The position numbers and the translations under genes are program-made. A stretch of DNA of 64,000 nucleotides from Actinomycetes bacterium (lineage in GTDB: Bacteria; Actinomycetota; Thermoleophilia; Solirubrobacterales; JACPNS01): positions 5,457 through 69,456 of the forward strand of contig JAEYBE010000026.1 of NCBI GenBank assembly GCA_023404495.1, read 5' to 3'. Below are positions 4,281 to 38,518 of the stretch, in pieces (positions within the stretch are counted from its first letter, which is position 1; each line of letters begins with the position of its first letter). The notes beneath the pieces are model-generated. The model saw nothing but the letters and a program-made list of their open reading frames with translations. It was not told the origin of the DNA and did no database searches.

Positions 4281-4285
4281 CGGCT

Positions 4286-5086
4286 CTAGGCCCGCGGGCC
4301 GCCGCAGACGGCGACGAAGTCGAGCGCCTTGGTCAGCGACTCGTCGGTCTCGCCGCGCCGCAGCGCGAAATCTCTGGCGCTGATCGACGGCGTGAACCGG
4401 TCGTAGAACAACTTGCTGATGCGCAGACCTTTGTGCAGATCGTCCCACCGGGCGTGCCTGAGCGCCAGCTCATGCAGGCGCAGCTTGCGCGCATGAAAGA
4501 CGCCGTAGATCGTCACCTCGGTGAAGACCTCCTGACAGAGCTCGCGAAACTCGCTCGGGCGGTACTCCTTGACATGCCACGGATTTCCCGACTTCTCTGC
4601 CCCCTCTGGCGCCAGTGTGAGCAGATTTGGAGTCGAGACGAAGACCTGGCCGCCGGGCGTCAGCAGCGACGCGAAGTGCCGCAGCACGGCCGCCGGGTCC
4701 TGGACGTGCTCGATCGTCTGCAGGAAGCTGACGACGTCGACCTTCTCTGCCGGCCGGTAAGTCTCGATCAGGTCGCGGACGATAGAGATCTTCTCGCTGC
4801 CGTACTTCGCTTTGGCGTGCTCGTAGGCCTCGGGGTTTGCGTCCACGCCGATCACGCTGGCGGCCCGGCGTGCAAGCACCTCGGTGCCGTAGCCCTCTCC
4901 GCAGGCCATGTCGACCACGCTCTTGCCGGCCACGCGCTCGGCGATCCATTCGTAGACCACGAGGTGGCGGCGGTACCAGTAGTTCTCCTCGGGCAGATCT
5001 GGCAGTGTTCGCTCGCCGGTCAGCTCCAGCGGCGGCACGCCGTCGGGCTGGTTTAGCTGAATGAACTTTTCGGCGACTTCGGGCAT
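4286..5086 (-). CDS. Class I SAM-dependent methyltransferase
   Basis: ORF track 4286..5269 trimmed to ATG 5086 (MPEVAEKFIQL...). SAM motif I is VVDMACGEGYG, followed by VIGVDAN. The longer version would overlap the divergent gene. Confidence 0.75.
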   Translation of the reverse strand: MPEVAEKFIQLNQPDGVPPLELTGERTLPDLPEENYWYRRHLVVYEWIAERVAGKSVVDMACGEGYGTEVLARRAASVIGVDANPEAYEHAKAKYGSEKISIVRDLIETYRPAEKVDVVSFLQTIEHVQDPAAVLRHFASLLTPGGQVFVSTPNLLTLAPEGAEKSGNPWHVKEYRPSEFRELCQEVFTEVTIYGVFHARKLRLHELALRHARWDDLHKGLRISKLFYDRFTPSISARDFALRRGETDESLTKALDFVAVCGGPRA

Positions 5087-5095
5087 CGGCGCCGC

Positions 5096-5103
5096 ACTAT
5101 AGT
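5096..5103. promoter_or_regulatory. Palindromic -10-like element ACTATAGT in a 27-bp divergent intergenic gap (candidate bidirectional promoter core)
   Basis: TATAGT reads on both strands. It lies 10 nt upstream of ATG 5114 (+) and 9 nt upstream of ATG 5086 (-). No room remains for a conventional leader or SD. Confidence 0.3.
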
Positions 5104-5113
5104 TGCGCCCCCT

Positions 5114-6049
5114 ATGGCCCTCACCGCACAAGAGATCAAAGACTTCAACATCTCCTACCACGACGCCGCCGCCGAGGAGTACGACGCCAAGTGGGGCATC
5201 GACTACGGCGAGATCGGACAGTCGCAGGTACGAATCAAGACCGCCAAGGTGCTCGGTAAAGACGCGCACTTTGAGCGGGCGCTGGAGATCGGCTCAGGCA
5301 CCGGCTACCTCTCACTGAACATGATGCTCGCGGGGATGATCGACGAGGTCGTCTGCACCGACATCTCAGAGGGCATGCTCAGCGTCGTCGAGAACTCCGC
5401 CGAACGCCTCGGCCTTGGCGACCGGGTGACGACCGTTCACACCGAGGCCGAGGGCCTGCCGTTCCCCGATGAGTCGTTTGACCTTGTGTTCGGCCACGCG
5501 ATCATCCACCACCTACCCGACCTGCAGGAATCGTTCAACGAGTTCTTCCGCGTTTTGAAGCCCGGCGGCACGGTGTTCTTCGCCGGTGAGCCCTCCGAGC
5601 GTGGCGACAAGATCGCCCGCCTGCCAAAACAGGTCGGCCACCGCCTCTCCCCGGTCTGGAGAAAAGCGCTCGGCGTCGGTCAGCTCTCGAAGCAGGAGGC
5701 CGCGAAGGTCGCCGCCGGCGAGCGCTCGAAGGAGCACATCGAGGGCCACGCCGTCGAGCACCTGGTCGACATCCACGCCTTCCGTCCCGGTGATCTTTCG
5801 CGCTACGCCAAGAATGCTGGCTTTGGCGACGTCCGGGTGATCGGCGAAGAACTCTCGGCCAATTGGTTCGGCTGGTTCAACCGCGCGCTCGAAGCGGATG
5901 GCATCCCCGAGGACATCCCCTGGGGCTGGCGCCAGTACGCCTACCGCGGCTACCTCGGCTTCCAGTGGTTTGACCGCACCGCGCTGGAGGGCCGCCTGCC
6001 GGCGAGCATCTTCTACAACCTGATGATCGGGGCGGTCAAGCCCGAGTAG
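5114..6049 (+). CDS. Class I SAM-dependent methyltransferase
   Basis: 311-aa ORF with SAM motif I ALEIGSGTGYL, acidic loop CTDISEGM, and FDLVFGHAIIHHL. Confidence 0.8.
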   Translation: MALTAQEIKDFNISYHDAAAEEYDAKWGIDYGEIGQSQVRIKTAKVLGKDAHFERALEIGSGTGYLSLNMMLAGMIDEVVCTDISEGMLSVVENSAERLGLGDRVTTVHTEAEGLPFPDESFDLVFGHAIIHHLPDLQESFNEFFRVLKPGGTVFFAGEPSERGDKIARLPKQVGHRLSPVWRKALGVGQLSKQEAAKVAAGERSKEHIEGHAVEHLVDIHAFRPGDLSRYAKNAGFGDVRVIGEELSANWFGWFNRALEADGIPEDIPWGWRQYAYRGYLGFQWFDRTALEGRLPASIFYNLMIGAVKPE

Positions 6050-6055
6050 CCCGCG

Positions 6056-6382
6056 CTACGCGCTGGGCGGGCCGACTTGGATCGGGAAGCCGCGCGAGGC
6101 CCAGGCGGTGATCCCGCCGTCGAGGTTGTACGCGGTCGAGCCTGGATGCTGCTGCTCGTAGATTGCCGAGGCGACCTGAGAGCGCTGTCCCGTGGCGCAT
6201 TGGAAGATCACCTTCTCGTGCTGATCGACCAGCGAGGGGTCGCCCTCGTAGTCGGTCAAGGGGACCAGCCGCGCGCCTTCGATGCGCATCTCCTCCCACT
6301 CGTACTCCTCGCGGCAGTCGATCATCACCGCGTGTTCGTCTTCGACAAGCCTGTGGGCTTCCTGAGCAGAAACGTTTTCCAT
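6056..6382 (-). CDS. Single-domain rhodanese (sulfurtransferase)
   Basis: ORF track 6056..6460 trimmed to ATG 6382 (MENVSAQEAHRLVEDEHAVMIDCREEYEW...). Active-site loop is QCATGQRS. Confidence 0.75.
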   Translation of the reverse strand: MENVSAQEAHRLVEDEHAVMIDCREEYEWEEMRIEGARLVPLTDYEGDPSLVDQHEKVIFQCATGQRSQVASAIYEQQHPGSTAYNLDGGITAWASRGFPIQVGPPSA

Positions 6383-6392
6383 GCGCGCGAGA

Positions 6393-7499
6393 TTAGGCGG
6401 TGGTCTCGGACAGCCGGTCGATCGCAGCGCCGAAGAATGCGTTCTCCTCGTCGCTCCCACAGGTCACGCGAAACGCGCCAGGTGCGCCAAAGCCCGAGAG
6501 CTCGCGCACCGCAACCCCCAGCCGCAGCAGCCGCTTCTCGACATCCTTGCCGCTCCCTCCGGCGGCCTCGGCGAAGACGAAGTTCGTGCGCGAAGCGATC
6601 GGCTTGTGGCCGGCCAGCGAGAGGTACTTGAAGATCTGCGTGCGTGCCTCTTTGACGTGGTCGACGCGCCGCCAGACCTCGGCCTGATCCGAGAGCGCAG
6701 CCAGCGCAGCTCGCTGGGCCAGAGCGTTGACGTTGAAAATGCTGCGCATGCGATCGACCGCAGAAACCACTTCCGGCGATCCCAGCCCGTAGCCGATACG
6801 CAGCCCCGCAAGCCCGTAGACCTTGCTGAATGTGCGAAGCACAAGCAGGTTCGGCACGCCCTCGCGCACGAGCTGCGCGCCCTCGGGCTCCTCGTCGCCC
6901 GAGGCAAATTCCGCGTAGGCCTCATCAAGTACGCAAAGCACGTGTTCGGGAAGGCTCGCGAGAAACTCGCGAATCTGCGCCCGCGTGGCCAGCTTGCCGG
7001 TGGGATTGTTGGGGTTGCAGACGTAGACGATCCGCGTGGTCGGGAAGATCGCAGCGCGCATCGCTGCAAAGTCGATCTCCCAGTCGCTGGTCAGCTCGAC
7101 GGGCCGGGCCTCAGCACCGGTCGTTGCGCAGGCGGCGACATATGTCGGAAACGACGGCCAGGGGAAGATCCCGTTGTCGCCCGTCTCCAGAACCGTCATC
7201 GCCGCCAGGCGAATCAGCTCGTCGGCGCCGTTGCCGAGCACGACATTCTCCGGCCCCAGCCCGAGCAGCGCGCCGATCCCAGATTTCAGCTCCGGCGCTG
7301 CCGAGTCCGGATAGCGCCGCAGTTCATCGGGGTCGTACTCGTCGAAGATCGCCGCTCGCGCTGCCGGAGTCGGGCCGAACGCCCCTTCGTTGGACGCGAG
7401 TTTGTAGATCTTCTCGATGCCGAGCTCGGCCTGAAGGCGCTCGACCGGCGGCTGCGCGACGTACGGTCGAAGCTCGCCGACATGTCGCTTGAACGGCAA
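6393..7499 (-). CDS. hisC: Histidinol-phosphate / aromatic aminotransferase (class II)
   Basis: 368-aa ORF with LASNEGAFGP, VYVCNPNNPTG, LDEAYAEF and the PLP-lysine motif RTFSKVYGLAGLRIGY. Confidence 0.8.
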   Translation of the reverse strand: MPFKRHVGELRPYVAQPPVERLQAELGIEKIYKLASNEGAFGPTPAARAAIFDEYDPDELRRYPDSAAPELKSGIGALLGLGPENVVLGNGADELIRLAAMTVLETGDNGIFPWPSFPTYVAACATTGAEARPVELTSDWEIDFAAMRAAIFPTTRIVYVCNPNNPTGKLATRAQIREFLASLPEHVLCVLDEAYAEFASGDEEPEGAQLVREGVPNLLVLRTFSKVYGLAGLRIGYGLGSPEVVSAVDRMRSIFNVNALAQRAALAALSDQAEVWRRVDHVKEARTQIFKYLSLAGHKPIASRTNFVFAEAAGGSGKDVEKRLLRLGVAVRELSGFGAPGAFRVTCGSDEENAFFGAAIDRLSETTA

Positions 7500-7509
7500 T
7501 TGCCCGCCT

Positions 7510-8274
7510 CTAACGGGACCCGGCGCGTTTGAACGCCCAGCCCGTGGTTGGCACAGCTACCGCGAGGATCGCCACACACCAGATCAGCGCCGCGATGATC
7601 GCGTTCCCGGCCGGGATCCCAGTCGTCAGAGCGCGAGTCGCATCGATCACCTGGGTGACGGGCTGGTTCTCGGCGAAGGCCTGAAGCCCAGCCGGCATCG
7701 TGCTCGGCTCGACGAAAGCTGAACTCGCGAACGTCAGCGGCAGAATGATGATGAAAGAGATCTGTTGCAGGGCCTCGACGTTCGGCACGAATATCGCCAA
7801 GAGGGCGCCGATCCACGAAATTGCGAAGCTGAAGACGATCAGAATGCCGATCGCCGCCGCCCAGTCGACGGCCCCTCCAGTCGGCCGATAACCAACAAGA
7901 AGGCCCACCAGAACCATCACGAAGAGGGTGAAGATCGCACGCAAGGCGTCGGCGATCGTGCGGCCGATGATGATCGCCGGGCGCGACATCGGCAGGGTGA
8001 AGAACCGCTCGACGATCCCCTTGTCGAGGTCGTACGCCAGCGAGATCGCCGTCGTCAGGCCGCCGAATGCGATCGTCTGGACGAAGATCCCGGCCATCAG
8101 GAAGTTCACGTAGCTCGTTCCGCCGACGTCAATTGCGCCGCCGAAGACGTAGCGAAACAACAGCACGAACATGATCGGCGAGACGGTTACTCCGACGAGG
8201 ATCTCCGGACTTCGGAAGGTGTGCTTCACCGACCTGCGGAAGAGCAGCAATGTGTCGCTGACGAGATTGCTCAT
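7510..8274 (-). CDS. ABC-2 type exporter permease (DrrB-like)
   Basis: 254-aa ORF, hydrophobic throughout (about 6 TM helices). It overlaps the upstream ATPase gene by 4 nt. Confidence 0.75.
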   Translation of the reverse strand: MSNLVSDTLLLFRRSVKHTFRSPEILVGVTVSPIMFVLLFRYVFGGAIDVGGTSYVNFLMAGIFVQTIAFGGLTTAISLAYDLDKGIVERFFTLPMSRPAIIIGRTIADALRAIFTLFVMVLVGLLVGYRPTGGAVDWAAAIGILIVFSFAISWIGALLAIFVPNVEALQQISFIIILPLTFASSAFVEPSTMPAGLQAFAENQPVTQVIDATRALTTGIPAGNAIIAALIWCVAILAVAVPTTGWAFKRAGSR

Positions 8275-9263
8275 GCGTCGCCCGCCTCATCCTGTTCGTC
8301 GACGACGTGCTCGCCGGTGAGGGTCAGGAACACGTCATCGAGCGTCGGTCGGTGGACCAGCACCTCGTCGAGTGTCACTCCACCGGTGTCGAGCAGATCG
8401 ATCAGGCGAGCCACCTGTGTGGGTCCGTCGGTCAAGGCCACGGTGATACGGCCCTCACGATCTTCGCTGTCGACAACCTCGACCGCTTTGCCCTCGAGTA
8501 GTTGCCTCGCCCTCGCGAGCGCCCCGTCCCCAGAGACCTTGAACTCAAGTCGTTGGCCGCCGACCTCGTCCTTCAACTCGTCCGACGTGCCGCGCGCGAT
8601 CACCGTCCCGTGATCGATCACGACGATCTCGTCGGCGAGTTGGTCGGCCTCGTCGAGGTACTGGGTCGTGAGCAGAACCGTCGTGCCGCGATCGACCAGT
8701 TTCTGAATCTGCTCCCACATGCCGATGCGGCTGCGCGGATCGAGGCCGGTCGTCGGCTCGTCGAGAAAGAGAATTTCGGGGTCCGCGATCATGCCCGCCG
8801 CCAAATCCAGCCGTCGTCGCATTCCGCCCGAATAGGTGCCAGCGTTTCGATCGGCCGCGTCCACCAGGTCAAATTGCGACAGCAGGTTCTCCGCACGCTG
8901 CTGCGCGTCGCTCTTGGTCAGCCGCGCGAGCCGGCCGATCATCACAAGGTTTTCGCGACCCGTCAGGAGTTCGTCAACCGCCGTGTCCTGACCGGTCAGG
9001 CCGATCTTGCGGCGCACGCCATTGGGATCGTCCGCGACATCCACCCCGCCGACACTGGCGCTGCCGCCGTCGATCGAGAGGAGCGTCGTGAGCATGCGCA
9101 CGGCGGTCGTCTTGCCAGCGCCATTTGGACCGAGCAGTGCGGTCACCGTCCCGCGCGGCACCTCAAGATCAACGCCGGCGACCGCCTTCGTCTCGCCGAA
9201 GCTCTTGGTCAGTCCCTGCGCGCTGATGGCGATCTCGTTGGCGATATTTCCTGCGTCCTGCAT
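8271..9263 (-). CDS. ABC transporter ATP-binding protein (DrrA-like)
   Basis: ORF track 8271..9518 trimmed to ATG 9263 (MQDAGNIANEIAISAQGLTKSFG...). Walker A GPNGAGKTT, signature YSGGMRRRL, Walker B ILFLDEPTTGLD. Confidence 0.85.
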   Translation of the reverse strand: MQDAGNIANEIAISAQGLTKSFGETKAVAGVDLEVPRGTVTALLGPNGAGKTTAVRMLTTLLSIDGGSASVGGVDVADDPNGVRRKIGLTGQDTAVDELLTGRENLVMIGRLARLTKSDAQQRAENLLSQFDLVDAADRNAGTYSGGMRRRLDLAAGMIADPEILFLDEPTTGLDPRSRIGMWEQIQKLVDRGTTVLLTTQYLDEADQLADEIVVIDHGTVIARGTSDELKDEVGGQRLEFKVSGDGALARARQLLEGKAVEVVDSEDREGRITVALTDGPTQVARLIDLLDTGGVTLDEVLVHRPTLDDVFLTLTGEHVVDEQDEAGDA

Positions 9264-9300
9264 CGGAGACCGATCATAGGGAGCGGTTCGGAAACACCGG

Positions 9301-10836
9301 TCAGGCCAGTACGAACGCGCCCCCGCGCCGCGGATCGCCGCCGCCGGCGAGCTCACCACCGGGATCGCGCCCGACGGCCTGGCAGCCGCCGAAGAAGAGA
9401 TTGGCCCGGTCCCATTGAGCCACCGGCGTGCCGGCGAGCTGGATCGCCTCAAGAGCGAGTTCATCGATCCCGGGCTCTGCCTGAACCATCCCGTCCTCGA
9501 AGTGGACGCGCGGCGCACGCACCGCCTGGTCGATCTGCATACCGTGATCGATCACGTTGACGATCGTCTGCAGAACCGCCGAGCGAATGCGATTGGAGCC
9601 AGCCGAGCCGAGCACGATGCGCGGCGCGCCATCCTCGAGCACGACAGTCGGCGCCATCATCGAGGTCACGCGCTCACCGCCGCGATTGTTCTCTGCACCG
9701 AGCGGATTGAGATCCATCTCGCCGAGCATGTTGTTGAGCGAGATGCCGGTGCCGGGCACGATCACGCCGCTGCACGATCCGTTTGAACAGGTGCAAGAGA
9801 CCGCAAGCCCGTCGGCGTCAAGCACTGACACGTGGGTGGTCGATCCGAGCATGCTGGTCGGCAGCGCGCCGCCCCCGCTGATTCTGTCGTGCTCGCCGGT
9901 CAGCCACGAGCGTCCGGAGTCGAGGAACTCGTCCCAGAATCCCTCGCGCGCAAGACCCTCGACGAACTCACGGTCGCGTCCGCGGTTGGCGAAATCCATC
10001 GCATCGACCAGCTCTCGCGCCGACACGCGCTCGCCCTGGGCGAGGTGCACGAGGCTGTCGGCGATCAGCAGACCGCCAGACGACGGCGGCGGGTTCGTGA
10101 TCACGCGGCGACCGCGGTACTCGGTGGTGCCGGGGGTGCGGTCGATCACTTCGTAGGCCGCAAGATCTTCCGGGGTGATCGTTCCGCCGTTCTCGCAGAC
10201 GAACTCAGCCACCTTCTGCGCGACCTCGCCGCGATAGAACGGCTCCGGGCCGTCCTGTGCGAGCCGGTCGATCGCATCGCCGAACTCGGGAAGCAGCAGG
10301 AGCTCGCCGATCTGCGGCATGTTGCCGTCCGGCGCGTAGACTGCGCGCCCCTCAGGCCAGGCGGTGAGGATCGGCGTGAGGATCCGGTAGAGGAAGGCGT
10401 GGACCTCGCTCGTCGGCACACCCTTGCGGCTGAGCTCGATCGCGGGCTTTGCAAGCTCGGTCATCGGCATTGTGCCGAAGCGATCGAGCGCGCTCCAGAG
10501 ACCTGCCGCCGTGCCATAGACGCCGCAGGTGGCGGCGCCGCCGTTGAATTGCTGCAGCGCGCCGTCGAAATCGACCATGAACTCGACCTGTTCGGCCTCG
10601 GGCGCAACGCTCGCCGGCGAGCTGACGAAGAAGTCGAGCAGGTGGGACTCGCCCGCAGGCGTGTGGATCAGCATGAAGCCGCCGGCGCCGATGCCGGTCA
10701 GCGGCGATTCGGCGATGAATGAGGTGAGCACCGCGGCAATTGCGGCGTCGACGGCGTTGCCGCCTTCTCGCAAAGCGCGTGCGCCTGCCTCCGCGGTCAA
10801 TGTGTGACCGGCAGCGATAGCGCCCCGCGAAGTCAT
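9301..10836 (-). CDS. ggt: Gamma-glutamyltransferase family protein
   Basis: 511-aa ORF. GGT-type N-terminus (AIAAGHTLTAEAGARALREGGNAVDAAIA), GAGGFML, and the autoprocessing Thr in GSTTHVSVLD. I see no signal peptide. Confidence 0.85.
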   Translation of the reverse strand: MTSRGAIAAGHTLTAEAGARALREGGNAVDAAIAAVLTSFIAESPLTGIGAGGFMLIHTPAGESHLLDFFVSSPASVAPEAEQVEFMVDFDGALQQFNGGAATCGVYGTAAGLWSALDRFGTMPMTELAKPAIELSRKGVPTSEVHAFLYRILTPILTAWPEGRAVYAPDGNMPQIGELLLLPEFGDAIDRLAQDGPEPFYRGEVAQKVAEFVCENGGTITPEDLAAYEVIDRTPGTTEYRGRRVITNPPPSSGGLLIADSLVHLAQGERVSARELVDAMDFANRGRDREFVEGLAREGFWDEFLDSGRSWLTGEHDRISGGGALPTSMLGSTTHVSVLDADGLAVSCTCSNGSCSGVIVPGTGISLNNMLGEMDLNPLGAENNRGGERVTSMMAPTVVLEDGAPRIVLGSAGSNRIRSAVLQTIVNVIDHGMQIDQAVRAPRVHFEDGMVQAEPGIDELALEAIQLAGTPVAQWDRANLFFGGCQAVGRDPGGELAGGGDPRRGGAFVLA

Positions 10837-11258
10837 GCGAGGTCGAACCCGGGTGCCTCGACCGGGATGCCGATCGAGCTTGCGGATTCGATAAGCCGGC
10901 GGTCGTAGCTGACCAGCGAAGCCGCCCCAACCATCGTCGCGGTCGCGCAGTGGATGGCGTCGAGAGTGCGCAGAGATTCGCCACCGATTCGCCTTGCGAC
11001 CGCGATCGTCTCATACGAGATCGGGTATCCGGACACCCCTGCGAGTGCGTCGGACTCGGCGTCGCCCGGATACTCCACGTCCCCGACGGCGAGGCGCCGG
11101 CGCAGTGTGCGAGACACCTCAACCCACCCCAGCGTCGAAGTCACCAGTTCGTTCGCGCCAGTCGCAAGTTCAGCCAACCGCCGGCGCAGGGGCTCGGACT
11201 CGGGCTCGCTGAGAACCCGCTTCACGATCGCGCTCGAATCGAGATACACGATCCGCAC
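10833..11258 (-). CDS. vapC: PIN-domain ribonuclease toxin VapC
   Basis: 141-aa ORF with PIN acidic positions (IVYLDSSAIV, TLDAIH, SYDRRL). Its stop overlaps the ggt start as ATGA. Confidence 0.8.
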   Translation of the reverse strand: MRIVYLDSSAIVKRVLSEPESEPLRRRLAELATGANELVTSTLGWVEVSRTLRRRLAVGDVEYPGDAESDALAGVSGYPISYETIAVARRIGGESLRTLDAIHCATATMVGAASLVSYDRRLIESASSIGIPVEAPGFDLA

Positions 11259-11265
11259 GAGCCGG

Positions 11266-11526
11266 TCAGATCCGATCGTCGCGATCGAGCAGATCCAGCG
11301 AAGTCATTCCCTCGGGCATCGGAATGAGCTGTTCTTCCGGCACAGTCTCGAACGGCCGCTCAGGAGGAATCAGGCTGTCACGCCAATGCTCGCTGCGCTT
11401 CTCCTGCGGAGTCAGATACGCATCGACGGCAGCACGGATCACATCTTGCTGAGAACGACCGCTGCGCTCGGCCTCGGCCTTCACCGCCGCAGCCGCCTGC
11501 TGGCTGAGTCTCAGATTCGTGGCCAT
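11266..11526 (-). CDS. vapB: Ribbon-helix-helix antitoxin (VapB/CopG-like)
   Basis: ORF track 11266..11553 trimmed to ATG 11526 (MATNLRLSQQAAAAVKAEAERSGRSQQDVIRAAVDAYL). It ends 7 nt before vapC. Confidence 0.65.
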   Translation of the reverse strand: MATNLRLSQQAAAAVKAEAERSGRSQQDVIRAAVDAYLTPQEKRSEHWRDSLIPPERPFETVPEEQLIPMPEGMTSLDLLDRDDRI

Positions 11527-11563
11527 CCGGCAATGGTACCGATTTGGTACCAATCCTGCGGCG

Positions 11564-13102
11564 TCAGCCCCTGGGAACGAATTCCGGCACGTCCATGTCG
11601 GACAACGCCATCGATCCCGAGTCGCCCGAGCGTGAGACGCGTGGCTCGCGGTCGGCGCGAGTGGCCTCGATCAGCGCGCTCTGGCGCACGCCGCCCGCGA
11701 CCTGCTGGCCGCCGCCGCGCACCGTCTTCTGACGATGGTCGCCGTAGCGGGTCGCGATCACCGTCACCCACACCTGGTCGGTGAGGTTCGGGTCGACCAT
11801 CGCGCCGAAGATGATGTTGGCCTCCGGGTGCGCAGCCTCCTGGACGATCTTGGCGGCCTCGTTGACCTCCCAGAGGGAGAGATCCGGACCGCCGGTGATC
11901 GAAAGCAGAATCGCGCGCGCGCCCTCGATGCTGGTCTCAAGCAGCGGTGAGCTGACAGCCTGGTTGGCCGCCTCGACGCTTCGCACATCGGGGCTGCCGG
12001 CGCCCATACCGATGCCCAGCAGCGCCTGTCCGGCGTCGGACATGATCGTGCGCACGTCTGCGAAGTCAATGTTGATCAGGCCCGCGAGGGTGACGAGGTC
12101 GGAGATGCCCTGCACGCCCTGGCGCAAGACGTCGTCGGCGACGCCGAAGGCCTCGACCATCGAAGTGTTCTTGTCGAGGATCGCCAGCAGGCGGTCGTTC
12201 GGGACGACGATCAGCGTGTCGACCTCGTCGGCCAGCGCCTCGACGCCGAGCTGCGCGGCGCCCTTGCGGCGTGTGCCCTCGAATCCGAACGGCGTGGTCA
12301 CGATGCCGACGGTCAGCGCGTCGACTTCACGCGCGATCCGCGCAACGATCGGGGCCGCGCCCGTACCGGTGCCACCGCCGGCGCCGGCGGTGATGAAGAT
12401 CATGTCGCTGCCCTTGAGCACGCGCTTGATTGCGTCGTAGTCGGCGACCGCGGCGCGCGCGCCCTGCTCGGGGTCTGCGCCGGCACCGAGCCCACGTGTG
12501 ATGTCTGCGCCGATGTGCAGCTTGATGTCAGCCGCGCTGCCCTGGAGCGACTGCATGTCGGTGTTGATCGCGACGAACTCGACACCGGTAACACCAGCCT
12601 CGATCATCCTGTCAACCGCGTTGACGCCAGCCCCGCCGACGCCGACGACGCGCAGCTTGGGCGTGACAACGCCCTGGGGAGTTGCACTGAAAGCGGCTGC
12701 GCCGGGGTCGGGGATATTGCGCCCGTAGTGGGCGGCCGGAGGCTCGTCGGTGCTTCCGTCGATCACCTCTGCCGAGCCACGAGCCATGTCAAAGACCTTC
12801 TTCAGGCGCTCTTTGGCCGGCACGTCGCTGGCGACGGTGTTTGCCTCGCGCTCGGCCGCAGGTGTGCGAGGAGCCGGCGCTTCGAACGCCGGCTCGGGCT
12901 CTGAGGGCTGAGATTCTTGGATCGGCTGGGCCTGCGCGGCGGGCTCGGGCTCGGTCGCAGGGGCCGCTGCTTCGGCCTCGGGTGCCGCCGGCTGCTCCGC
13001 CTCGGGCTCGGTCTTGCGGAAGAGCGCGGCGAGTGGTCCTTCGCGCATGCTGGCCCGCTTGTTCACTACAGGCTTGCCCTGCTCTTCATTGTCACGTGCC
13101 AT
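11564..13102 (-). CDS. ftsZ: Cell-division GTPase FtsZ with an unusual ~148-aa N-terminal extension
   Basis: [20 protein letters not shown] signature [16 protein letters not shown]7 loop NIDFADV, and a conserved C-terminal peptide [11 protein letters not shown]. Start taken at ATG 13102 ([10 protein letters not shown]...); the ORF-track start 13162 lies inside parA. GC3 stays high through the extension. Confidence 0.9.
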
Positions 13103-13877
13103 GGGCGATGACCTCCTGGGCCAGATCTCTGTAGGACTGCGCGGCGACGCCGTCGGGGTCATATTTGAGGACAGACATTCCCTTCACGGGAGCCTCGGCG
13201 AAACGGATCGTCTTCTTGATGCGAGAAGCGAACACGCGGTCTCCGAAGTTCTCCTCCAGCAGCTCGATCGCTTCCTTGGCGTGAAGCGTGCGCGAATCGA
13301 CGAGGGTCGGAAGGATTCCCTCGATGTCGACATCCGGATTCAGGTTCTCGCGGATCATCTCCAAGGTGTTCTGCAGCTGGATGAGGCCTCTCATCGAGAG
13401 GTACTCACACTGTACGGGCACAATAACTTTGTCAGCGGCGGTGAGAGCGTTGATCGTCAGCAGCCCGAGGCTCGGCGGGGTGTCGATGCAGATGAAGTCG
13501 TACTGGTCGCGCACCTCATCGAGCGCCTTGTCGAGCGCGCGCTCGCGGCCGATCTGCGTCGAAAGCGCCATCTCCGCGCCGGCGAGGTCGATCGAGGCTA
13601 CGGCGACGTCGATCTCCCGGTGGACGATGATCTGGCTGATCGGCACCTTGTTGACGAGCACGTCGTAGATCGACGTCTCGACCGTGTCCGGGTCCACGCC
13701 CTGCGACATCGTCAGGTTGCCCTGCGGGTCCATGTCGATGCAGAGGACCTTGTGGCCCTCTTCTGCGAACGCCGCAGACAGGTTGAGGGTCGTCGTCGTC
13801 TTGGCAACGCCGCCCTTCTGGTTGGCGAATGCGATGACCTTGGCCTTCTTGGTCTTCTTCTGCGGGGTGTCAGTCAT
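13092..13877 (-). CDS. ParA/Soj-family deviant Walker-A ATPase (orphan, no parB nearby)
   Basis: ORF track 13092..13946 trimmed to ATG 13877 ([37 protein letters not shown]...). Contains KGGxx[11 protein letters not shown] and [10 protein letters not shown]. The stop overlaps the ftsZ ATG by 11 nt. Confidence 0.85.
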
Positions 13878-14057
13878 GGTGCGGCGATGCTCCTGGTGCG
13901 GAGGGCGTTGAAAAGTCGGATTGGAGACCCGGGAGGGGGTCTCCATGGGGGCCTTTTCGTAGCGAGCAGGTGTATTCCTGCACGAACGTCATGCTGGATT
14001 TCCGCTCTGAGAGCGGGATCGCAGGGTGATGATCTGATTCGGAGTAGCCTGCGCCGC

Positions 14058-15038
14058 ATGCCAGGACCGGCAACGCCAGCCCCAGCCAAGGATCTCTTCG
14101 AGCATCGATTGCTCTTCGTGACCGGCAAGGGCGGTGTCGGCAAGACCACGGTCGCTGCGGCGCTCGGGCTCGCCGCAGCGCGCCACGGACTGCGCACGAT
14201 CGTGTGCGAGCTCGACGCGCGTGAGCGCCTGCACAGCCTCTTCAACGTCTCAACGCGGGGATTCGAGGAGGTCGAGCTTGTGCCCGATCTCCACGCAATT
14301 GCGATCGATCCGCAGCACGCGATCGAGGAGTACCTGCTGCTGCAGATCAAGGTTCGGCCGGTCTACGACATGCTCTTCAAGAACCGCGTCTTCGACTACT
14401 TCGCAGCCGCCACGCCCGGGCTCGCGGAGCTGGTCACGATCGGCAAAGTCTGGGAGCTCGCCCAACCGGACCGCCTGAAGAAGAAGTCAGAGCCCTACGA
14501 CCTGGTGATCGTCGACGCACCGGCGACCGGCCACGCGCTGGCGATGCTCGAGGCACCGGAGACGTTCAAGAAGATCGCGCGCGTAGGCCCGATCCACCGT
14601 CAGGCGGGATACATCCAGTCGTTCCTGCACGATCCGGCGACCACCGCGATCATCGCCGTGGCGACAGCCGAAGAGATGCCAGTCAACGAGACCCTTGACC
14701 TGCGCGCCGAGCTTCGAGAACGTGTCGGTCTCGACATCTCACTAGCCGTGGTCAACGCGCTCGAGCCGGAGTTCTTCTCGGCCAAAGAGATCGCGCAGCT
14801 CAAGCAGCTCGACCACCTTGCCCCGCTTGACGCCGCGATCCTGCAGTCCGAGCGCCAGGTTCGCCAGGCAGGCCAGCACGCGCGGCTCGCCAAGGGGCTC
14901 GAACGGCCACTGGTTGATCTGCCGTTCCTCTACGAGAAGGCAATCGGCCGCGCCGAACTCAACACGCTGGCGGACAAGCTGACCGAGGACCTCGCAGAGC
15001 AGTTCGCCGGCATCGCGAAGCAGAAGGACGAGAGCTGA
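14058..15038 (+). CDS. ArsA/Get3-family P-loop ATPase (first of a pair)
   Basis: Only the C-terminal 326 codons of ORF 13014..15038 are credible (MPGPATPAPAKDLFEHRLLFVTGKGGVGKTTVAAALG...VIVDAPATGHAL). The upstream part is antisense to parA. Confidence 0.8.
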   Translation: MPGPATPAPAKDLFEHRLLFVTGKGGVGKTTVAAALGLAAARHGLRTIVCELDARERLHSLFNVSTRGFEEVELVPDLHAIAIDPQHAIEEYLLLQIKVRPVYDMLFKNRVFDYFAAATPGLAELVTIGKVWELAQPDRLKKKSEPYDLVIVDAPATGHALAMLEAPETFKKIARVGPIHRQAGYIQSFLHDPATTAIIAVATAEEMPVNETLDLRAELRERVGLDISLAVVNALEPEFFSAKEIAQLKQLDHLAPLDAAILQSERQVRQAGQHARLAKGLERPLVDLPFLYEKAIGRAELNTLADKLTEDLAEQFAGIAKQKDES

Positions 15039-16126
15039 TGGATCTCGCCTCGCAACTTCAGAATGTCGAGGTGGTCGTGTGCGCCGGGTCGGGCGGAGTC
15101 GGCAAGACGACCACGAGCGCCTCGATCGCGATCGGCATGGCGGCCCGTGGCTACAAAGTCGCCGTCCTCACGATCGACCCCGCAAAACGCCTGGCCGACT
15201 CGCTCGGCTTGTCGGAGCTTGGCACCGAGTTGCGCCAGGTAGACGCGAAACTCTTCAATCCGCAAGGCCTCGAACTGACCGGTGAACTCCACGCTGCGAT
15301 GCTCGACCCCAAGCGCACCTTCGACGAGCTGATCCTGCGCTACGCGCCAGACCGCGAGACCTACGAGAACATTCTCTCCAACCGGATCTACCAGGAGCTT
15401 TCAAACGCAATCGCCGGCTCCCAGGAGTACATGGCGATGGAGAAGTTGCTCGAGCTACATGAGAGCGGCGAGTTCGATCTGCTTGTGCTCGACACACCGC
15501 CCTCGCGCAACGCACTTGAGTTCCTCGACGCGCCAAAGCGCCTCGCGCGCTTCGTCGACGGGAGGGCACTGCGGGTCTTCCTGGCCCCCGGGCGCTTCGG
15601 CCTGAGGATCGCCGGGCGCGGCGGCAGCATGCTGTTCTCAGCCCTGACCAAGATCACCGGCGTCGACCTGCTCAACGACCTCTCCGAGTTCTTTGCCAAC
15701 TTCGCCGATATGGCATCCGGGTTCTCTGAGCGCGCCCAACGGGTGGACGCGCTGCTGCGCAGCGACCGATCAACCTTTCTCTTGATCTGCTCGCCCGAAA
15801 ACGAGCCGGTCGATGAGGCGATCTTCTTCCGCCGGCTGCTCAAGGAGCAGAAGCTCCCGTTCTGCGGCGCGATCGTCAACAAGGTGCGGCCGGATTACTA
15901 CCGCGCGAAGAAACAGCTACCGGATTCGATCGACCCCGAGCTCGCAGCGCGCATCATGGAGAACTACGACCGCCAACGCCTGCTCGGCGCGCGCGACGCC
16001 GAAAACATCGCGCGGCTTGAGAAGTCACTCTCGACCAACAACCTGATCGAAGTCCCGCTCTTCTCCGACGACATCCACGGCGTCGACGGGCTGGTGCACA
16101 TGGTGCGTCAGGTGTTTGGCAACTGA
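15038..16126 (+). CDS. ArsA/Get3-family P-loop ATPase (second of a pair)
   Basis: 362-aa ORF with VVVCAGSGGVGKTTTSASIA, LTIDPAKRL and LVLDTPPSRNALEFL. The start overlaps the upstream stop (TGATG). Confidence 0.8.
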   Translation: MDLASQLQNVEVVVCAGSGGVGKTTTSASIAIGMAARGYKVAVLTIDPAKRLADSLGLSELGTELRQVDAKLFNPQGLELTGELHAAMLDPKRTFDELILRYAPDRETYENILSNRIYQELSNAIAGSQEYMAMEKLLELHESGEFDLLVLDTPPSRNALEFLDAPKRLARFVDGRALRVFLAPGRFGLRIAGRGGSMLFSALTKITGVDLLNDLSEFFANFADMASGFSERAQRVDALLRSDRSTFLLICSPENEPVDEAIFFRRLLKEQKLPFCGAIVNKVRPDYYRAKKQLPDSIDPELAARIMENYDRQRLLGARDAENIARLEKSLSTNNLIEVPLFSDDIHGVDGLVHMVRQVFGN

Positions 16127-16620
16127 GCTTCCAGCGCGTCGCACCAGCGCCGGACCGTCTCGTGTTGGGCGCTCCATGCGACCCAGACGTTTTCCGCCCA
16201 GCGCCGCGCCAGCGCTACGTGCTCCTCAAAAGTCTCCCCGGCCAGCACATCCTGCGCGGTCATCGTGCCGATCGGTGTCGTCGGTTCAAACCAGGGAATG
16301 TGCAGTCCGCCGTGGGTCGAGCGCTCCATCACGGCGGTCGCGTAACGCTGCGGCGCATTGCGCTCAAGCATCATGCAGAGGCGGATCAGGTGCACGCCGA
16401 CCGACTGGCGTGCGCGCGGCACGTTCTCGCCGGGATGCTGGGCGGCGTAGGCGTCGACAATGAACTTGTGCTCCTCCGGCATCCCGAATTCGCCGTAGTC
16501 CTTCGCCAGCACGCGACCATAGACCGCCCAGCAGGCTGCGCTCGCACCGATGTACTCGTGCGTCGGACCGTCGTACTCGGGCAGGACGATTCCGCAGCCT
16601 GGGCAGGCGCTCTCAGACAC
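16108..16620 (-). CDS. Conserved hypothetical protein with an N-terminal CPGCG zinc-ribbon-like motif (DUF5946-like; family name from memory)
   Basis: 170-aa ORF with a GTG start (MSESACPGCGIVLPEYDGPTHEYIGASAACWAVYGRVLAKDYGE...VDAYAAQHPG). It overlaps the upstream gene's stop by 8 nt. Confidence 0.5.
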   Translation of the reverse strand: MSESACPGCGIVLPEYDGPTHEYIGASAACWAVYGRVLAKDYGEFGMPEEHKFIVDAYAAQHPGENVPRARQSVGVHLIRLCMMLERNAPQRYATAVMERSTHGGLHIPWFEPTTPIGTMTAQDVLAGETFEEHVALARRWAENVWVAWSAQHETVRRWCDALEAQLPNT

Positions 16621-19027
16621 CGCCGCAGAAGTCGTCCGGGTCGTCCGGATCGCTTTCGATGACCGGACGAAACTCGATCGTCGCGGGGCCGATGCGGTGG
16701 TTGCGATCGGCTTCGCTCGTGTGATTCTCGGGCTCCACCGCTTCGACCGGCTCGGGAAACTTTGCGACTACGAGGTCCGGAACAGGGCGAAGCGGTTGCG
16801 GCTCAACGGCCTCGGGCGCCTCGGCCGGCTCTGCGCGCTGCTCTGGTTCAGGAGCATCCTCGCGGCGCAGGAACTGACGACTCCAGGCAAGCTGGGCGGC
16901 CTCTTCGGCGGAGGTCTCGGCGCCGGGCACGTCGTACTCGACGGTCATCTGCGGGTCGAGCGGGATCAGCGGCCGATCCGCCGCATCCGGGCGGACGATC
17001 CGCAGTGCCGCGGCCTCAGCTTGAGAATCCTTGGCCGATTCGACAGCAGACAGGTGCGAACGAACGTCGCGCGCGATCGGCGTACTCGCCGCCTCGTCGC
17101 TCGGCCGCTCGGGGTGGAGAAAGTTCTCGTCCATGATCTCGCGGAAGTTCTCGCGCTGCTCGTCGGCTCCGACCTCATCGTCGCTGCGGCGCACAGCCGG
17201 GCCGCGGCCGGTCGGGACTCCGAACTCTGGGATCGGGAACGCGGGATCGACTTCGTCGACAGCTGTCGCAGGCGGGGTGATCTGTTCAACGACGGGAGGT
17301 GCCGCCGGCACCGCCGGCGCGTCGGCGACCGGCGAGAAGTCGAACGTGAAGCCGCTCTCCCCATGGGCGTCGCTCAGCGCGGGTCGTTCGGCGACCGGCC
17401 GGCGCTCAGGAGCGGCGTCCCACTCGGGCGCCTCGAGCGCGGGCGGCTCGAGTTCGGACTCAGGCTGGACGGCGGACTCAGGCTCGGGGCTGACCCGCGG
17501 CGCCGGCGCGAGGTCCTCTGCCGGGTGGAGCGTCCAGACGTTGTCATCTGGCTCTGCGGGTTCGGCGAGCGCCTCGGCGTCCTCACGGGTGTCGATCGCC
17601 TTGATCTCGGCGGTGTCGTCAAAAACCGAGTCGAACTCCACGGTCTGCGTCGGGTCGACCGGTGCCGGTGCGCCGGGGTCTGGCACCGGCTCCAGGTAGA
17701 CGGGGTCCTCGGCGACGATCTCGTCGCCGGACGGTTCGCCATCGGCCGCCAGGATCTCGTCGGCGAGGCTCTTCAGGTCGGTCGAGAGATAGCCACACAC
17801 GAGGTCATGGAGCAGCGCGCGCAGGTGACGCTCAGCGCCGGCGATCACATCCAGCGGTGCGAACTTCTCCAAGCGCTTGCGATCGGCGCGCCCGACGCTG
17901 CCGTTCACAGCCAGGCGTTCGAGTGCAAAGGCCGCCTCGATCTGGTCGCGCACGTCCTGGCGCTCGTGGTCCTGCGCGCACAGCGCGGAGATCCGGGCCG
18001 GAAGCGCAGCCTTGCCACGATCGTCTTCGGCTTCAAGCAGCGCGCGCAGCGCCAGCAAAAAGTCAGTCAAGCCGTCGGCCGGCACGGTGCGCTCGAGACC
18101 GGTCTCGAATCGCTTGAGCGACCAGGCGATCCGCGTGCGGCGCTCAACCCGGCGCACGGCGTTGACGAATTGACGCAGTTCTTCCTCATCGCTCGGGCGC
18201 AGTTGCCAGGCGTCTTCGCGTGAGCGGCCCGAGAATGGCATCGAGACCTGGTGCCAAGAGCCCGCGATATCGGCCTGGGCGGTCATGCCCAGCGCAACGC
18301 TGCCCGGGCGAAACAGCCGCAGAGCGGTCAGCAGGGCGCGCGCGGACAGGCGCACTGCAGGCATCGGCGTGGGAGCATCGGACGGCGCCGTGACCGAAAT
18401 CGAGCAGTAGCTGTCGGCGCCGGCCGAGCTGTCGGAGAAGCGCTCGGCGCAGGTCGGGTCAAGCTCTTCGGCCGCGATCATCTCGACGCCCGCGCCGAGG
18501 TTGATCGAGCCCTCGCTCAAAGCGACGCCATGCACCGGGATGAAGACCGTGGTCACGAGCCGTTCGGCCAGAGCGACTGACTCAAGCTCGACATAGGCGC
18601 GCTCGAAGCGCTCATCCCAATACTCAAAGCGCTCGGCGCTCTCCCAGACCGCGGAGAGAAACGCCAACACGCCTAGCCGCGCGTGCGTCAGCTCTCCGAC
18701 GTCGAGCACCGGCTCGTTGCGCACGCGCAAGTAGGCGATCACGCCACGCGTTCGTGCGAGGTTCTGGGCGGCGTTCTCAAACGTCGCGAGCCGGCGAAGC
18801 TGGTCTGCGTGCGAGGCGACGAACTCGGCGGTGAGCGGCCGGTAGGCGAACATCGTGACCGGCCCGCGTGCACCCGGGGCCTCGCCACCGGGTCCAGACT
18901 CCCCGACCTCAAACGGAATCTCGGCGCCGCTCGCAAGCAGGTCTTCGAGCAGCCGGGAAGCGTCCTCTGTGAGCACGCGCAGGGAGTCATGGAGCATTCG
19001 ATCGCGCATGCAGGACGGTTTCTGCAC
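16613..19027 (-). CDS. Hypothetical protein: ~440-aa structured N-terminal domain plus ~360-aa acidic Pro/Glu/Ala-rich disordered tail
   Basis: 804-aa ORF with consistent GC3 bias. I recognised no motif. The start may be Met7 or Met11 (19009/18997). Confidence 0.6.
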   Translation of the reverse strand: MQKPSCMRDRMLHDSLRVLTEDASRLLEDLLASGAEIPFEVGESGPGGEAPGARGPVTMFAYRPLTAEFVASHADQLRRLATFENAAQNLARTRGVIAYLRVRNEPVLDVGELTHARLGVLAFLSAVWESAERFEYWDERFERAYVELESVALAERLVTTVFIPVHGVALSEGSINLGAGVEMIAAEELDPTCAERFSDSSAGADSYCSISVTAPSDAPTPMPAVRLSARALLTALRLFRPGSVALGMTAQADIAGSWHQVSMPFSGRSREDAWQLRPSDEEELRQFVNAVRRVERRTRIAWSLKRFETGLERTVPADGLTDFLLALRALLEAEDDRGKAALPARISALCAQDHERQDVRDQIEAAFALERLAVNGSVGRADRKRLEKFAPLDVIAGAERHLRALLHDLVCGYLSTDLKSLADEILAADGEPSGDEIVAEDPVYLEPVPDPGAPAPVDPTQTVEFDSVFDDTAEIKAIDTREDAEALAEPAEPDDNVWTLHPAEDLAPAPRVSPEPESAVQPESELEPPALEAPEWDAAPERRPVAERPALSDAHGESGFTFDFSPVADAPAVPAAPPVVEQITPPATAVDEVDPAFPIPEFGVPTGRGPAVRRSDDEVGADEQRENFREIMDENFLHPERPSDEAASTPIARDVRSHLSAVESAKDSQAEAAALRIVRPDAADRPLIPLDPQMTVEYDVPGAETSAEEAAQLAWSRQFLRREDAPEPEQRAEPAEAPEAVEPQPLRPVPDLVVAKFPEPVEAVEPENHTSEADRNHRIGPATIEFRPVIESDPDDPDDFCGGV

Positions 19028-34807: not shown

Positions 34808-34903
34808 CAGGCTGAAACTCTTTGGTGGTCGGGGGTCAGATTCGCGGCTAAATCTATCCGACCGGCAGGCTTGACCGCTCTCGCGGAGCCGGCTCTCCCG
34901 CAG

Positions 34904-35431
34904 TCAGTCGATGTGGCCTGCGTGACGCAGGCTGCGCGACAGCGCCGCACCAGCGATCTCGCCGAGCCGGCTGAGGTACGTCAGATCTTCCTCGCTCGGC
35001 GGCCGTGGACCTTCGTCGCCGAAAGTGCCGGTACCGATCGAGCCGAACCGCTCGCCATCGAGCACGATCGGGACGTTGATCACGGTGCGATTTCCGAGCT
35101 GTTCGACAATCTCCCGGTTGACTTCGTCGGAAACCTGGGCGTCGTCGATCACCTGTGGCGTATTTGACTCGATCAGCCGTGAGACGTACGGATCGCCGTC
35201 GATCGGGATCGGCTCCGATGAGTCCCAGAGATCGTCGCCGCCGGCGAGCTCGGCTGCAAGCACCCGGTACTCCCCGGTCGCAGCTGAATAGACGCCAAGC
35301 CAAGTCGTGCGATACCCGAGGGTGTTGCGAAGTTCTGCCGCGACAAGTTCGACCAGTTCGCGCTGCGAGTCGACCGACTCGAGCTGCTTCTCGAGTCTGC
35401 GCAAGAACACCTCGCGGTCCGCAGAACCCAT
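34904..35431 (-). CDS. Stand-alone GAF-domain protein
   Basis: 175-aa ORF with a GAF-like pattern (LVELVAAELRNTLGYRTTWLGVYS...VINVPIVLDGERFGSIG). Confidence 0.7.
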   Translation of the reverse strand: MGSADREVFLRRLEKQLESVDSQRELVELVAAELRNTLGYRTTWLGVYSAATGEYRVLAAELAGGDDLWDSSEPIPIDGDPYVSRLIESNTPQVIDDAQVSDEVNREIVEQLGNRTVINVPIVLDGERFGSIGTGTFGDEGPRPPSEEDLTYLSRLGEIAGAALSRSLRHAGHID

Positions 35432-35470
35432 CCCCGCAACCTACACCCGAGTGCGGCGTGCCGGTAACAG

Positions 35471-35500
35471 AAACGCCCCGGCCGTATGGCCGGGGCGTTT
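35471..35500 (-). terminator. Rho-independent terminator downstream of collagen-like gene 1
   Basis: 13-bp perfect stem AAACGCCCCGGCC / GGCCGGGGCGTTT with loop GTAT. On the minus strand it is followed by TTTCTGTT. Confidence 0.6.
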
Positions 35501-35547
35501 CGAGTTCCAACTGCGCCGCAAGCTAGGTGCGGCTATTCAACCGTGGA

Positions 35548-36435: not shown

Positions 36436-36531
36436 TGGTCTAGTCCTTTCGACTACTTCCATCGTTCATTGCACTTGATTCCCCCAACGATTCCGTGCCG
36501 TGAGCAACGTCCTCGCCTACTGCTTCGATCT

Positions 36532-36566: not shown

Positions 36567-36602
36567 ATATCCGAAGTTGATTCGTTTGGTGCCTCCCCGC
36601 CG

Positions 36603-38465: not shown

Positions 38466-38518
38466 ATCCCGCTCGCTGAGCGGCCGCACAGCCGGAATTT
38501 GCTAAGTTGAAGGGACGC

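Follow-up and report, generated by a model that had tools for sequence, protein, structure and literature searches.

A parA-like gene overlaps ftsZ outside the dcw context in Solirubrobacterales and their relatives: a candidate division-site positioning module

INTRODUCTION

How does a bacterium select its division site if it has none of the well-studied systems for doing so? To our knowledge, Actinobacteria are without MinCDE and Noc/SlmA, and division-site choice is an open problem in these bacteria. The question is posed in a concrete form by a locus from an Actinomycetes bacterium (GenBank assembly GCA_023404495.1, contig JAEYBE010000026.1) in which a gene for a ParA-like ATPase, here called parA, is directly followed and overlapped by ftsZ. 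The stretch of DNA that we analysed, referred to as the window throughout, is 64,000 nucleotides long and was taken from a metagenome scaffold of 554,748 bp (ENA ERZ28597395; positions 5457-69456) that belongs to a member of Thermoleophilia/Solirubrobacterales; coordinates below are those of the window.

As a rule, the gene for the partner of a ParA/MinD ATPase comes immediately after the ATPase gene, as is the case for parB, minE and mcdB; such partners contact the ATPase via a disordered, positively charged N-terminus, and can be a component of the cargo (PMC10241942). In the locus described here this partner slot is taken by ftsZ. An earlier note on this DNA, made from the sequence alone, had drawn attention to the overlap and had stated that a parA-ftsZ overlapping bicistron was not known to have been described. 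Our full-text literature searches agree with this: they returned no account of a parA-ftsZ bicistron, and nothing relevant on Thermoleophilia FtsZ.

Here we present a computational analysis of the locus and of its counterparts in related genomes. The two genes very probably constitute a functionally meaningful, co-expressed unit. Beyond that, we put forward the proposal that parA-ftsZ may be a two-gene, translationally coupled operon that acts as a division-site positioning module, with FtsZ as both the direct partner and the cargo of the ParA-like ATPase; on the sequence evidence set out below we regard this as a serious candidate that falls somewhat short of probable. FtsZ is proposed in this role because its gene occupies the partner slot and because the protein carries a partner-type element at its N-terminus.

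RESULTS

ftsZ lies behind a parA-like gene and overlaps it

Direct reading of the sequence bears out the gene boundaries given in the earlier note, according to which the parA-like gene ends at 13092, 11 nt inside an ftsZ that begins with the ATG at 13102 (Table 1). Gene calls made independently for the source record use the same start, yielding a product of 512 amino acids (aa). An in-frame ATG located earlier, at 13162, has no Shine-Dalgarno (SD) sequence and is not kept in homologs, while the ATG at 13102 is served by a perfect SD that lies inside the parA coding sequence. For parA itself, an alternative ATG at 13877 would give a protein of 261 aa, which is the length of most homologs.

A sequence scan of the coding strand found no promoter-like or terminator-like site between parA and ftsZ, which is a weak test at 65% G+C. 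A motif scan of the intergenic region upstream of parA, which presumably contains the operon promoter, likewise found no sigma-70 consensus, and this says little at the same G+C content. No Rfam families were detected between 9 and 17 kb of the window. From the overlap and the internal SD we infer that parA and ftsZ are co-transcribed; the suggestion in the earlier note that the genes are co-transcribed and possibly translationally coupled is strengthened by the retention of both features across ~80 species-level genomes, as described in the following section.

Table 1. Features of the parA-ftsZ locus in window coordinates; A1 and A2 are the alignments of FtsZ homologs and of their N-terminal regions described in the text
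Feature	Position	Strand	Details
ParA-like deviant Walker A ATPase gene	13946..13092	minus	284 aa; KGGVAKTT; Pfam AAA_31 8e-64, CbiA 5e-28
parA/ftsZ overlap, 11 nt	13092..13102	minus	parA TGA 13094-13092, ftsZ ATG 13102-13100
Shine-Dalgarno AGGAGG (perfect) for ftsZ	13112..13117	minus	within parA 3' end, 9 nt 5' of ATG
ftsZ, 512 aa + stop	11564..13102	minus	Pfam Tubulin + FtsZ_C; TIGR00065
FtsZ N-terminal extension, aa 1-149	12656..13102	minus	A1, A2; predicted disordered, P/A/E-rich, two conserved motifs
FtsZ motif 1, aa 14-32	13007..13063	minus	K15 R16 A17 S18 M19 R20 E21 G22 P23 L24 L27 F28 T31 invariant (A1, A2)
FtsZ motif 2, aa 95-106	12785..12820	minus	P-x-P-x-[ED]-R-L-[KR]-x-x-F; R99 L100 F104 invariant
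FtsZ GTPase domain, aa 150-309	12176..12655	minus	Pfam Tubulin residues 170-329 of 532-aa open reading frame; AlphaFold2 pLDDT 80-96
FtsZ C-terminal conserved peptide (D-V-P-E-F-x-P)	11567..11599	minus	P506 E507 F508 P510 invariant in A1
Divergent intergenic region between parA and BagA-like gene, 111 bp	13947..14057		gene calls; presumed operon promoter region

The gene pair is conserved in all sampled related loci that have upstream DNA

The locus was compared with the best 80 related loci, one genome per GTDB species, labelled as Solirubrobacterales, Solirubrobacteraceae, Thermoleophilaceae, Paraconexibacter, one Gaiellaceae metagenome-assembled genome (MAG) and Ca. Solirubrobacter pratensis. 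Conservation of the adjacency in relatives, which the earlier note had left to be examined, was complete: every locus that had upstream DNA (79/79) carries a ParA ortholog, with 73-95% identity, immediately upstream of ftsZ, i.e. ftsZ occupies the partner slot in each of them. The two genes overlap in 67 of the 78 loci that were scored, by 14 nt (55 loci), 11 nt (9 loci) or 8 nt (3 loci). Ten further loci have a gap of 12-33 nt instead, and one is anomalous due to parA read-through; in this last case, a related MAG (L029, ~9174-10163), the parA frame runs 175 nt into ftsZ, which reflects either a lost stop codon or an assembly frameshift. An SD-like sequence precedes the ftsZ ATG in 69/78 loci. 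The wider gene order is kept as well, and reads big804 - (DUF5946) - bagB (- bagA), then, divergently, parA - ftsZ - ggt.

The parA-ftsZ arrangement is far beyond chance. Because the adjacency is found in 79/79 loci and the overlap and SD are conserved, an ftsZ located outside dcw and coupled to parA is best read as the ancestral state of the whole clade rather than as a peculiarity of one contig.

The same comparison speaks to the explanation that the pair is a frozen accident, in which an ancestral rearrangement brought ftsZ behind parA and the overlap has since locked together two genes that have no functional relation. Such an accident would agree with the conservation of the wider synteny (big804, bagB, parA, ftsZ, ggt) among genes that are probably unrelated in function, as well as with the fact that all of the sampled genomes belong to one order-level clade. 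However, adjacency persists in the ten loci where a 12-33 nt gap replaces the overlap, and a toxin-antitoxin insertion right after ftsZ in some genomes indicates that the region can rearrange. Furthermore, ParA is unusually conserved (see the identities above), and the lineage-specific extension of FtsZ described below is under strong selection at the protein level. Taken together, this makes a frozen accident quite improbable.

FtsZ carries a long N-terminal extension with two conserved motifs

The GTPase domain of this FtsZ begins only at ~residue 150, and the extension that precedes it had been overlooked in the earlier note. We characterised it using an alignment of 35 FtsZ homologs with 63-91% identity (A1) and an alignment of 30 N-terminal regions (A2). 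Among 103 homologs its length ranges from 120 to 215 aa (median 136), and it is rich in Ala (16%), Pro (16%) and Glu (11%). Outside motif 1 and motif 2, two short conserved blocks (Table 1) whose consensus cores cover aa 15-31 and aa 95-104, it is hypervariable in both alignments. Motif 1 starts ~5-25 residues from the N-terminus and is connected to motif 2 by a hypervariable linker of 35-126 aa. It combines basic residues (K15, R16, R20, R29 and K30) with large hydrophobic ones (M19, L24, L27 and F28), and its hydrophobic moment, 0.44, is in the range of membrane-binding helices. In the AlphaFold2 (AF2) model the predicted local distance difference test score (pLDDT) of the extension is below 50, except for helices located exactly at the motifs (residues 23-28 and 96-108).

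Across 78 genomes every residue of motif 1 is kept while the codons vary freely, with six codons used for Arg and both AGC and TCG used for Ser. Given such free, saturating synonymous change, the selection must act on the peptide and not on the DNA or RNA, and the codon pattern likewise indicates that the residues upstream of M19 are translated. Several public FtsZ records from related MAGs start at an internal Met (P0022, P0026, P0030, P0031, P0034, P0039 and P0051): at M19 ('MREGPL'), past motif 2 ('MHVPS'), or immediately ahead of the GTPase domain. The extension and the parA overlap are hidden in these records as a consequence.

The extension has no match among Pfam families or PDB sequences. 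A motif profile search of 1.84 billion representative proteins yielded 996 matches, and the best 150 of the 996 were all N-terminal fragments of FtsZ or frameshifted FtsZ, so that the list was saturated by FtsZ and carries no information about other proteins with the motifs. Many of the matching database proteins are frameshifted and become Arg/Pro-rich past the motifs (P0127, P0140, P0180, P0240, P0247, P0260 and P0265); these entries are probably long-read assembly errors, and they swell the apparent number of distinct clusters.

Three candidate relatives of the extension were tried and rejected, using ParB, MinE and ScpA reference sequences most of which were entered by hand. The first is the N-terminus of ParB: the A2 profile gave no signal against four ParBs with 500 shuffles each, and the likeness of motif 1 to the ParB motif L-G-R-G-L-x-A-L-I, seen by eye, has no statistical support. 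The second is derivation from, or mimicry of, the N-terminus of ScpA (FEGPLDLLL versus REGPLAALF). Here 5-6 of 8 positions are identical, which we roughly estimate to be non-significant given the offsets and the multiple candidate motifs, and the profile scores ScpA no better than 1000 shuffles; we retain this likeness as no more than a lead. The ScpA N-terminus of Mycobacterium decipiens (L083, 5001-7511), FEGPFDLLL, similarly resembles motif 1 by eye with no statistical support. The third is a MinE-like tail, composed of a membrane helix and an AKERL contact helix, for which there is no Pfam MinE match even at E <= 10.

The ATPase resembles the orphan ParA-like proteins of Actinobacteria

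The ATPase has a deviant Walker A motif with the signature lysine, the superfamily's own motif 2 (D-x-D-P-Q-G-N) and a Walker B motif (ICIDTPP), all invariant in homologs, and matches Pfam AAA_31 with 215 bits, which places it by sequence in the ParA/MinD (deviant Walker A) superfamily. Its best relatives of solved structure are a ParA-like protein of Mycobacterium smegmatis (4PFS/5IHP, 208 bits), Myxococcus xanthus ParA (MxParA; 8RAY, 201 bits) and Thermus thermophilus Soj (173 bits). In BLASTP comparisons the Rv1708/PldP type, the identity of which was confirmed by its scpA-scpB context, is the top of five references (44% identity, 229-231 bits), ahead of 4PFS (45%, 204 bits), MxParA (41%, 179-202 bits) and Soj (43%, 182 bits); the margin over 4PFS and MxParA is small, and the signature residues are common to both orphan families. 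No curated NCBIfam model was passed, neither ParA_partition NF041546 (119.4 versus a cut-off of 180) nor TIGR01968 minD (61.7 versus 212.9). On these comparisons the ATPase appears to group with the actinobacterial orphan ParA-like proteins of the PldP/Rv1708 and Rv3213c types taken together.

Residue-level comparison with MxParA is informative, as both the hydrophobic pocket for the partner peptide and the DNA-binding residue R238 have been mapped in this protein (PMC12462528). In MxParA, E117 helps to form the site into which the central Arg/Lys of the ParB peptide fits, and stimulation of the ATPase requires it; an alignment of 3800 ParA homologs shows no variation at E117, and Y81 is likewise described as invariant (PMC12462528). 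The docking residues Y81, E82, D110 and E117 correspond to Y, D, D and Ala here. The Ala is invariant (GAEMAL or GAEIAM), and the mycobacterial orphans have Gln or Met there. In addition, the A-L-E-G of canonical ParA is replaced by S-M-R-G, and R-N-V-R-L by K-T-I-R-F; these three positions set this ATPase and both mycobacterial orphan types apart from canonical ParA. The hydrophobic cleft, in turn, is preserved: V116, L150, L152, L155, L187 and L192 of MxParA become M/I, L, L, I, M and L, invariant or nearly so, and the DNA-binding arginine equivalent to R238 is conserved within KTIRF. Because E117 is replaced by Ala while the cleft and R238 are kept, the ATPase looks like a nucleoid-binding ParA that can still take up an amphipathic helix from its partner, with that partner being a protein different from ParB.

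Could the ATPase, alternatively, be an ordinary chromosome-segregation ParA (Soj) with its parB elsewhere in the genome, placed next to ftsZ so as to co-ordinate segregation with division? Its similarity to MxParA is near that to the mycobacterial orphan (201 and 208 bits, respectively), it keeps the DNA-binding Arg as well as the hydrophobic pocket for ParB, and the Joint Genome Institute name of the protein is 'chromosome partitioning protein'. Against this, there is no parB in the 64-kb window or within +/-10 kb in 80 genomes, the ParA_partition score of 119 is below the cut-off of 180, and the invariant Ala at the E117 position, SMRG for ALEG and KTIRF for RNVRL are all as in the actinobacterial orphans. 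Finally, in a review of 100 actinobacterial genomes, Conexibacter included, all had ParABS plus a second parA-like gene. Because of this review a canonical parAB is likely to be present elsewhere in these genomes, and we consider it improbable that the gene next to ftsZ is the canonical parA.

The FtsZ core looks intact

Apart from its extension, the protein looks to be an intact and functional FtsZ. The earlier note had reported intact GTP-binding, T7-loop and C-terminal D-V-P-E-F motifs, and this description stands upon reading of the sequence, in the Pfam matches (Tubulin 9e-45, 153.7 bits; FtsZ_C 9e-30, 103.3 bits), in the match to the NCBIfam equivalog TIGR00065 (393.9 bits, cut-off 295.2) and in the invariance of the motifs in A1. 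GGGTGTG is present, as is the T7 loop (NIDFADV), in which N344, D346, F347, A348 and D349 are invariant in A1; the conserved C-terminal peptide is the one that membrane anchors use. The core is ~61% identical to Mycobacterium tuberculosis FtsZ, the reference for which was entered by hand. A single FtsZ match was found per locus (+/-10 kb) in the 80 species genomes, and the public annotation is 'cell division protein FtsZ'.

These properties bear on whether the gene might encode a specialised paralog of a canonical FtsZ whose gene is part of a dcw cluster at another place in the genome. While the N-terminal extension is atypical for FtsZ, as might be expected of a paralog, the protein passes the equivalog model, its GTPase, T7 and C-terminal residues are invariant, its core has the identity to the M. 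tuberculosis protein given above, and one such gene, annotated as the cell division protein, is present at the locus in each of the 80 species genomes. A paralog of this kind is very improbable.

Other division and partition genes were not found in the surroundings

Gene content confirms both that ftsZ lies outside a dcw context and that the parA-like gene has no neighbouring parB, as the earlier note had it. Its claim that parB, ftsQ, ftsA, sepF and mur genes are absent from the 64 kb is likewise supported by Pfam scans of the window and its flanks. Precomputed Pfam calls for 3.1-44.8 kb and our own Pfam scans of the other open reading frames (ORFs), together covering essentially all plausible ORFs of the window, revealed no dcw, mur, fts (other than this ftsZ), sepF, divIVA, min or parB genes. 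The same division and parB genes were not found in additional flanks of ~7 kb on the left and ~10 kb on the right, read from a near-identical contig. Using tblastn with queries entered by hand, we found no match for ParB or SepF, nor for Escherichia coli MinE, in the window or in the 80 loci (+/-10 kb).

Downstream of ftsZ there is a toxin-antitoxin pair, followed by the gamma-glutamyltranspeptidase gene (ggt). The pair, an RHH antitoxin and a PIN toxin (10833-11553, minus strand), separates ftsZ from ggt only in the closest relatives (L002, L004 and L006). In ~70 other genomes ggt directly follows ftsZ, indicating that the pair is a recent insertion just behind the operon.

On the other side, two adjacent genes for Get3/ArsA-type ATPases (14058-16126, plus strand) are divergent from parA. 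Their best models are mycobacterial BagA and BagB, with matches that are under the cut-offs (158 versus 400 bits and 314 versus 521 bits, respectively); the BagB-like gene is present in most related loci and the BagA-like gene in only some. Further on, a gene for an 804-aa protein (16613-19027, minus strand) has no Pfam or NCBIfam match and lies within the conserved synteny upstream of parA-ftsZ. Almost all related loci keep the first ~440 aa of its product, at 30-37% identity; the C-terminal half of the protein is P/E/A-rich. Elsewhere in the window, the 34000-46000 region has a G+C content of ~0.63, as compared with 0.65-0.68 in the rest, and contains several ORFs without a Pfam match (L082, genes at 3820-9260).

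DISCUSSION

In this study we have examined a gene pair in which ftsZ holds the position normally held by the gene for the partner of a ParA/MinD ATPase. If ParA and FtsZ are indeed partners, the mechanism might operate as follows. The ParA-like ATPase would dimerise upon binding ATP and associate non-specifically with the nucleoid. Motif 1, perhaps helped by motif 2, would be presented at the tip of the disordered tether of FtsZ and would dock at the ParA dimer's edge. The docked peptide would then trigger ATP hydrolysis and release of ParA, a role equivalent to that of the N-termini of ParB, MinE, McdB and PomX. Since FtsZ polymers would display many such peptides, they could behave as a multivalent cargo that is placed relative to the nucleoid by the ParA gradient. 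In the variant that we prefer the outcome would be placement at midcell, as in PomXYZ but without adaptors; nucleoid exclusion or inhibition in the manner of MipZ fits the data equally well. That the two proteins touch, that the ATPase binds DNA and is stimulated, and whether regulation is positive or negative are all predictions drawn from sequence.

The N-terminal extension of FtsZ has the sequence properties of a partner tail: the conserved element, found near the N-terminus, combines five basic with four large hydrophobic residues, is predicted to form a helix in part and is flanked by disorder. We speculate that the tail may date from the placement of ftsZ in the partner slot behind a parA-like gene. 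Several results weigh against FtsZ being the partner. Motif 1 has no detectable similarity to the N-termini of ParB, MinE or ScpA, with profiles performing as shuffles do and with no Pfam or PDB match. An AF2 prediction for ParA concatenated with FtsZ(1-149), run with a multiple sequence alignment for ParA only, had a mean pLDDT of 59 and low confidence for the peptide, and was uninformative. The predicted interfaces of ParA and FtsZ are both invariant, which makes covariation unusable. Moreover, the motifs could equally serve in membrane binding, in binding of another regulator or in phosphorylation.

This last point leads to the explanation that the operon couples expression only. The ATPase would then work via other partners, and the FtsZ motifs would act as a membrane helix, as a docking site for a regulator or as a site of control by a Ser/Thr kinase (S18, T31). 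The hydrophobic moment of motif 1 is in the membrane-binding range, no family similarity of the motifs to known ATPase-activating peptides was detected, and Rv1708 is reported to interact with ScpA and ParB rather than FtsZ. An extra membrane anchor is also plausible on general grounds in Actinobacteria, which are not known to have FtsA. What coupling of expression leaves unexplained is why every genome examined should have ftsZ in the partner slot, its overlap conserved, and why a long tether should carry the motif at the very start of the protein, just as in the partners of ParA/MinD ATPases. On balance we consider this explanation rather unlikely, though clearly worth keeping in view.

Returning to FtsZ as a partner, a bolder form of the proposal can be formulated: an adaptor-free, two-protein system in which FtsZ is both the ATPase-activating partner and the cargo, and which would reveal the partner class of the orphan PldP/Rv1708/Rv3213c ATPases. 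We advance this tentatively, and would not be surprised to see it fail. Were FtsZ to prove the partner, this would be the first FtsZ that is a direct cargo of a ParA-type positioning ATPase, and a minimal system for positioning of the Z ring. It would also show at work in nature the 'luggage tag' principle for N-termini that has been proposed for ParA/MinD systems (PMC10241942). In more practical terms, the coupling of the ATPase to ftsZ, combined with a partner-like peptide on FtsZ, converts the question of what the orphan actinobacterial ParA-like proteins target into a test at the level of a peptide.

Several ATPases of this superfamily are already known to control FtsZ, namely MinD via MinC, MipZ, PomZ via PomXY, and PldP; none of these has a gene that overlaps ftsZ in an operon, and none acts on an FtsZ that bears a partner-type peptide. 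One comparable system is PomXYZ of M. xanthus. Its ParA/MinD ATPase, PomZ, sits on the nucleoid and is reported to place the Z ring at midcell by positive regulation, and an N-terminal peptide of PomX activates the ATPase. However, PomZ needs the adaptors/scaffolds PomX and PomY, its genes are unlinked to ftsZ, and FtsZ, which has no activating peptide, is recruited indirectly. MipZ of Caulobacter crescentus is likewise ParA-like and has FtsZ as its direct target, but it is an inhibitor, ParB organises its gradient, its gene is not linked to ftsZ, and its FtsZ has no dedicated peptide; the Pfam MipZ model matches our ATPase only in part (49.6 bits, profile positions 2-136 of 262), i.e. over the shared P-loop half.

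MinCDE offers a precedent for an operon of an ATPase followed by its activator. MinE has an N-terminal membrane helix and, after it, a contact helix with the sequence AKERLQII. By eye these resemble motif 1 and motif 2 (AKERLKKVF) of FtsZ, in the same order, though with no Pfam match. Unlike MinD, our ATPase is without a C-terminal amphipathic membrane-targeting helix and falls below the TIGR01968 cut-off, and the window contains neither minC nor minE. With ParABS the locus shares the order of parA and then a partner gene, a basic and hydrophobic N-terminal peptide on a disordered tether, and an ATPase that keeps the cleft and the DNA-binding Arg. It differs in that the proposed partner is a tubulin-like polymer and not a CTP-dependent DNA clamp on parS, and in that the docking site for the ParB arginine is altered (E117 to A).

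Lineage-specific additions to FtsZ have a precedent of their own: in cyanobacteria (Anabaena), FtsZ has a conserved N-terminal extension that is needed for normal polymerisation and division. That extension is unrelated in sequence, and the cyanobacterial ftsZ is not known to have an upstream ParA gene, nor its product a proposed ATPase partner.

Closest in sequence among the systems compared are PldP (Corynebacterium glutamicum Cg1610), the Rv1708-MSMEG_3743 'ParA2' and the Rv3213c-MSMEG_1927 type. These orphans share derived residues with our ATPase: they have lost the Glu at E117, and carry S/A-x-R-G where canonical ParA has A-L-E-G, and [KR]-T-[IV]-R-F where it has R-N-V-R-L. PldP is found at septa as well as over the nucleoid and influences where septa are placed; ParB does not stimulate it, and no partner of PldP has been reported; Rv1708/MSMEG_3743 affects division, with overexpression resulting in filamentation. 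We know of no N-terminal extension on the FtsZ of organisms that carry PldP or Rv1708. The gene arrangement differs in its downstream half: in M. decipiens (L083) the Rv1708-type gene is followed by scpA, with a 4-nt overlap, and then by scpB, whereas in the clade described here the gene that follows the ATPase is ftsZ.

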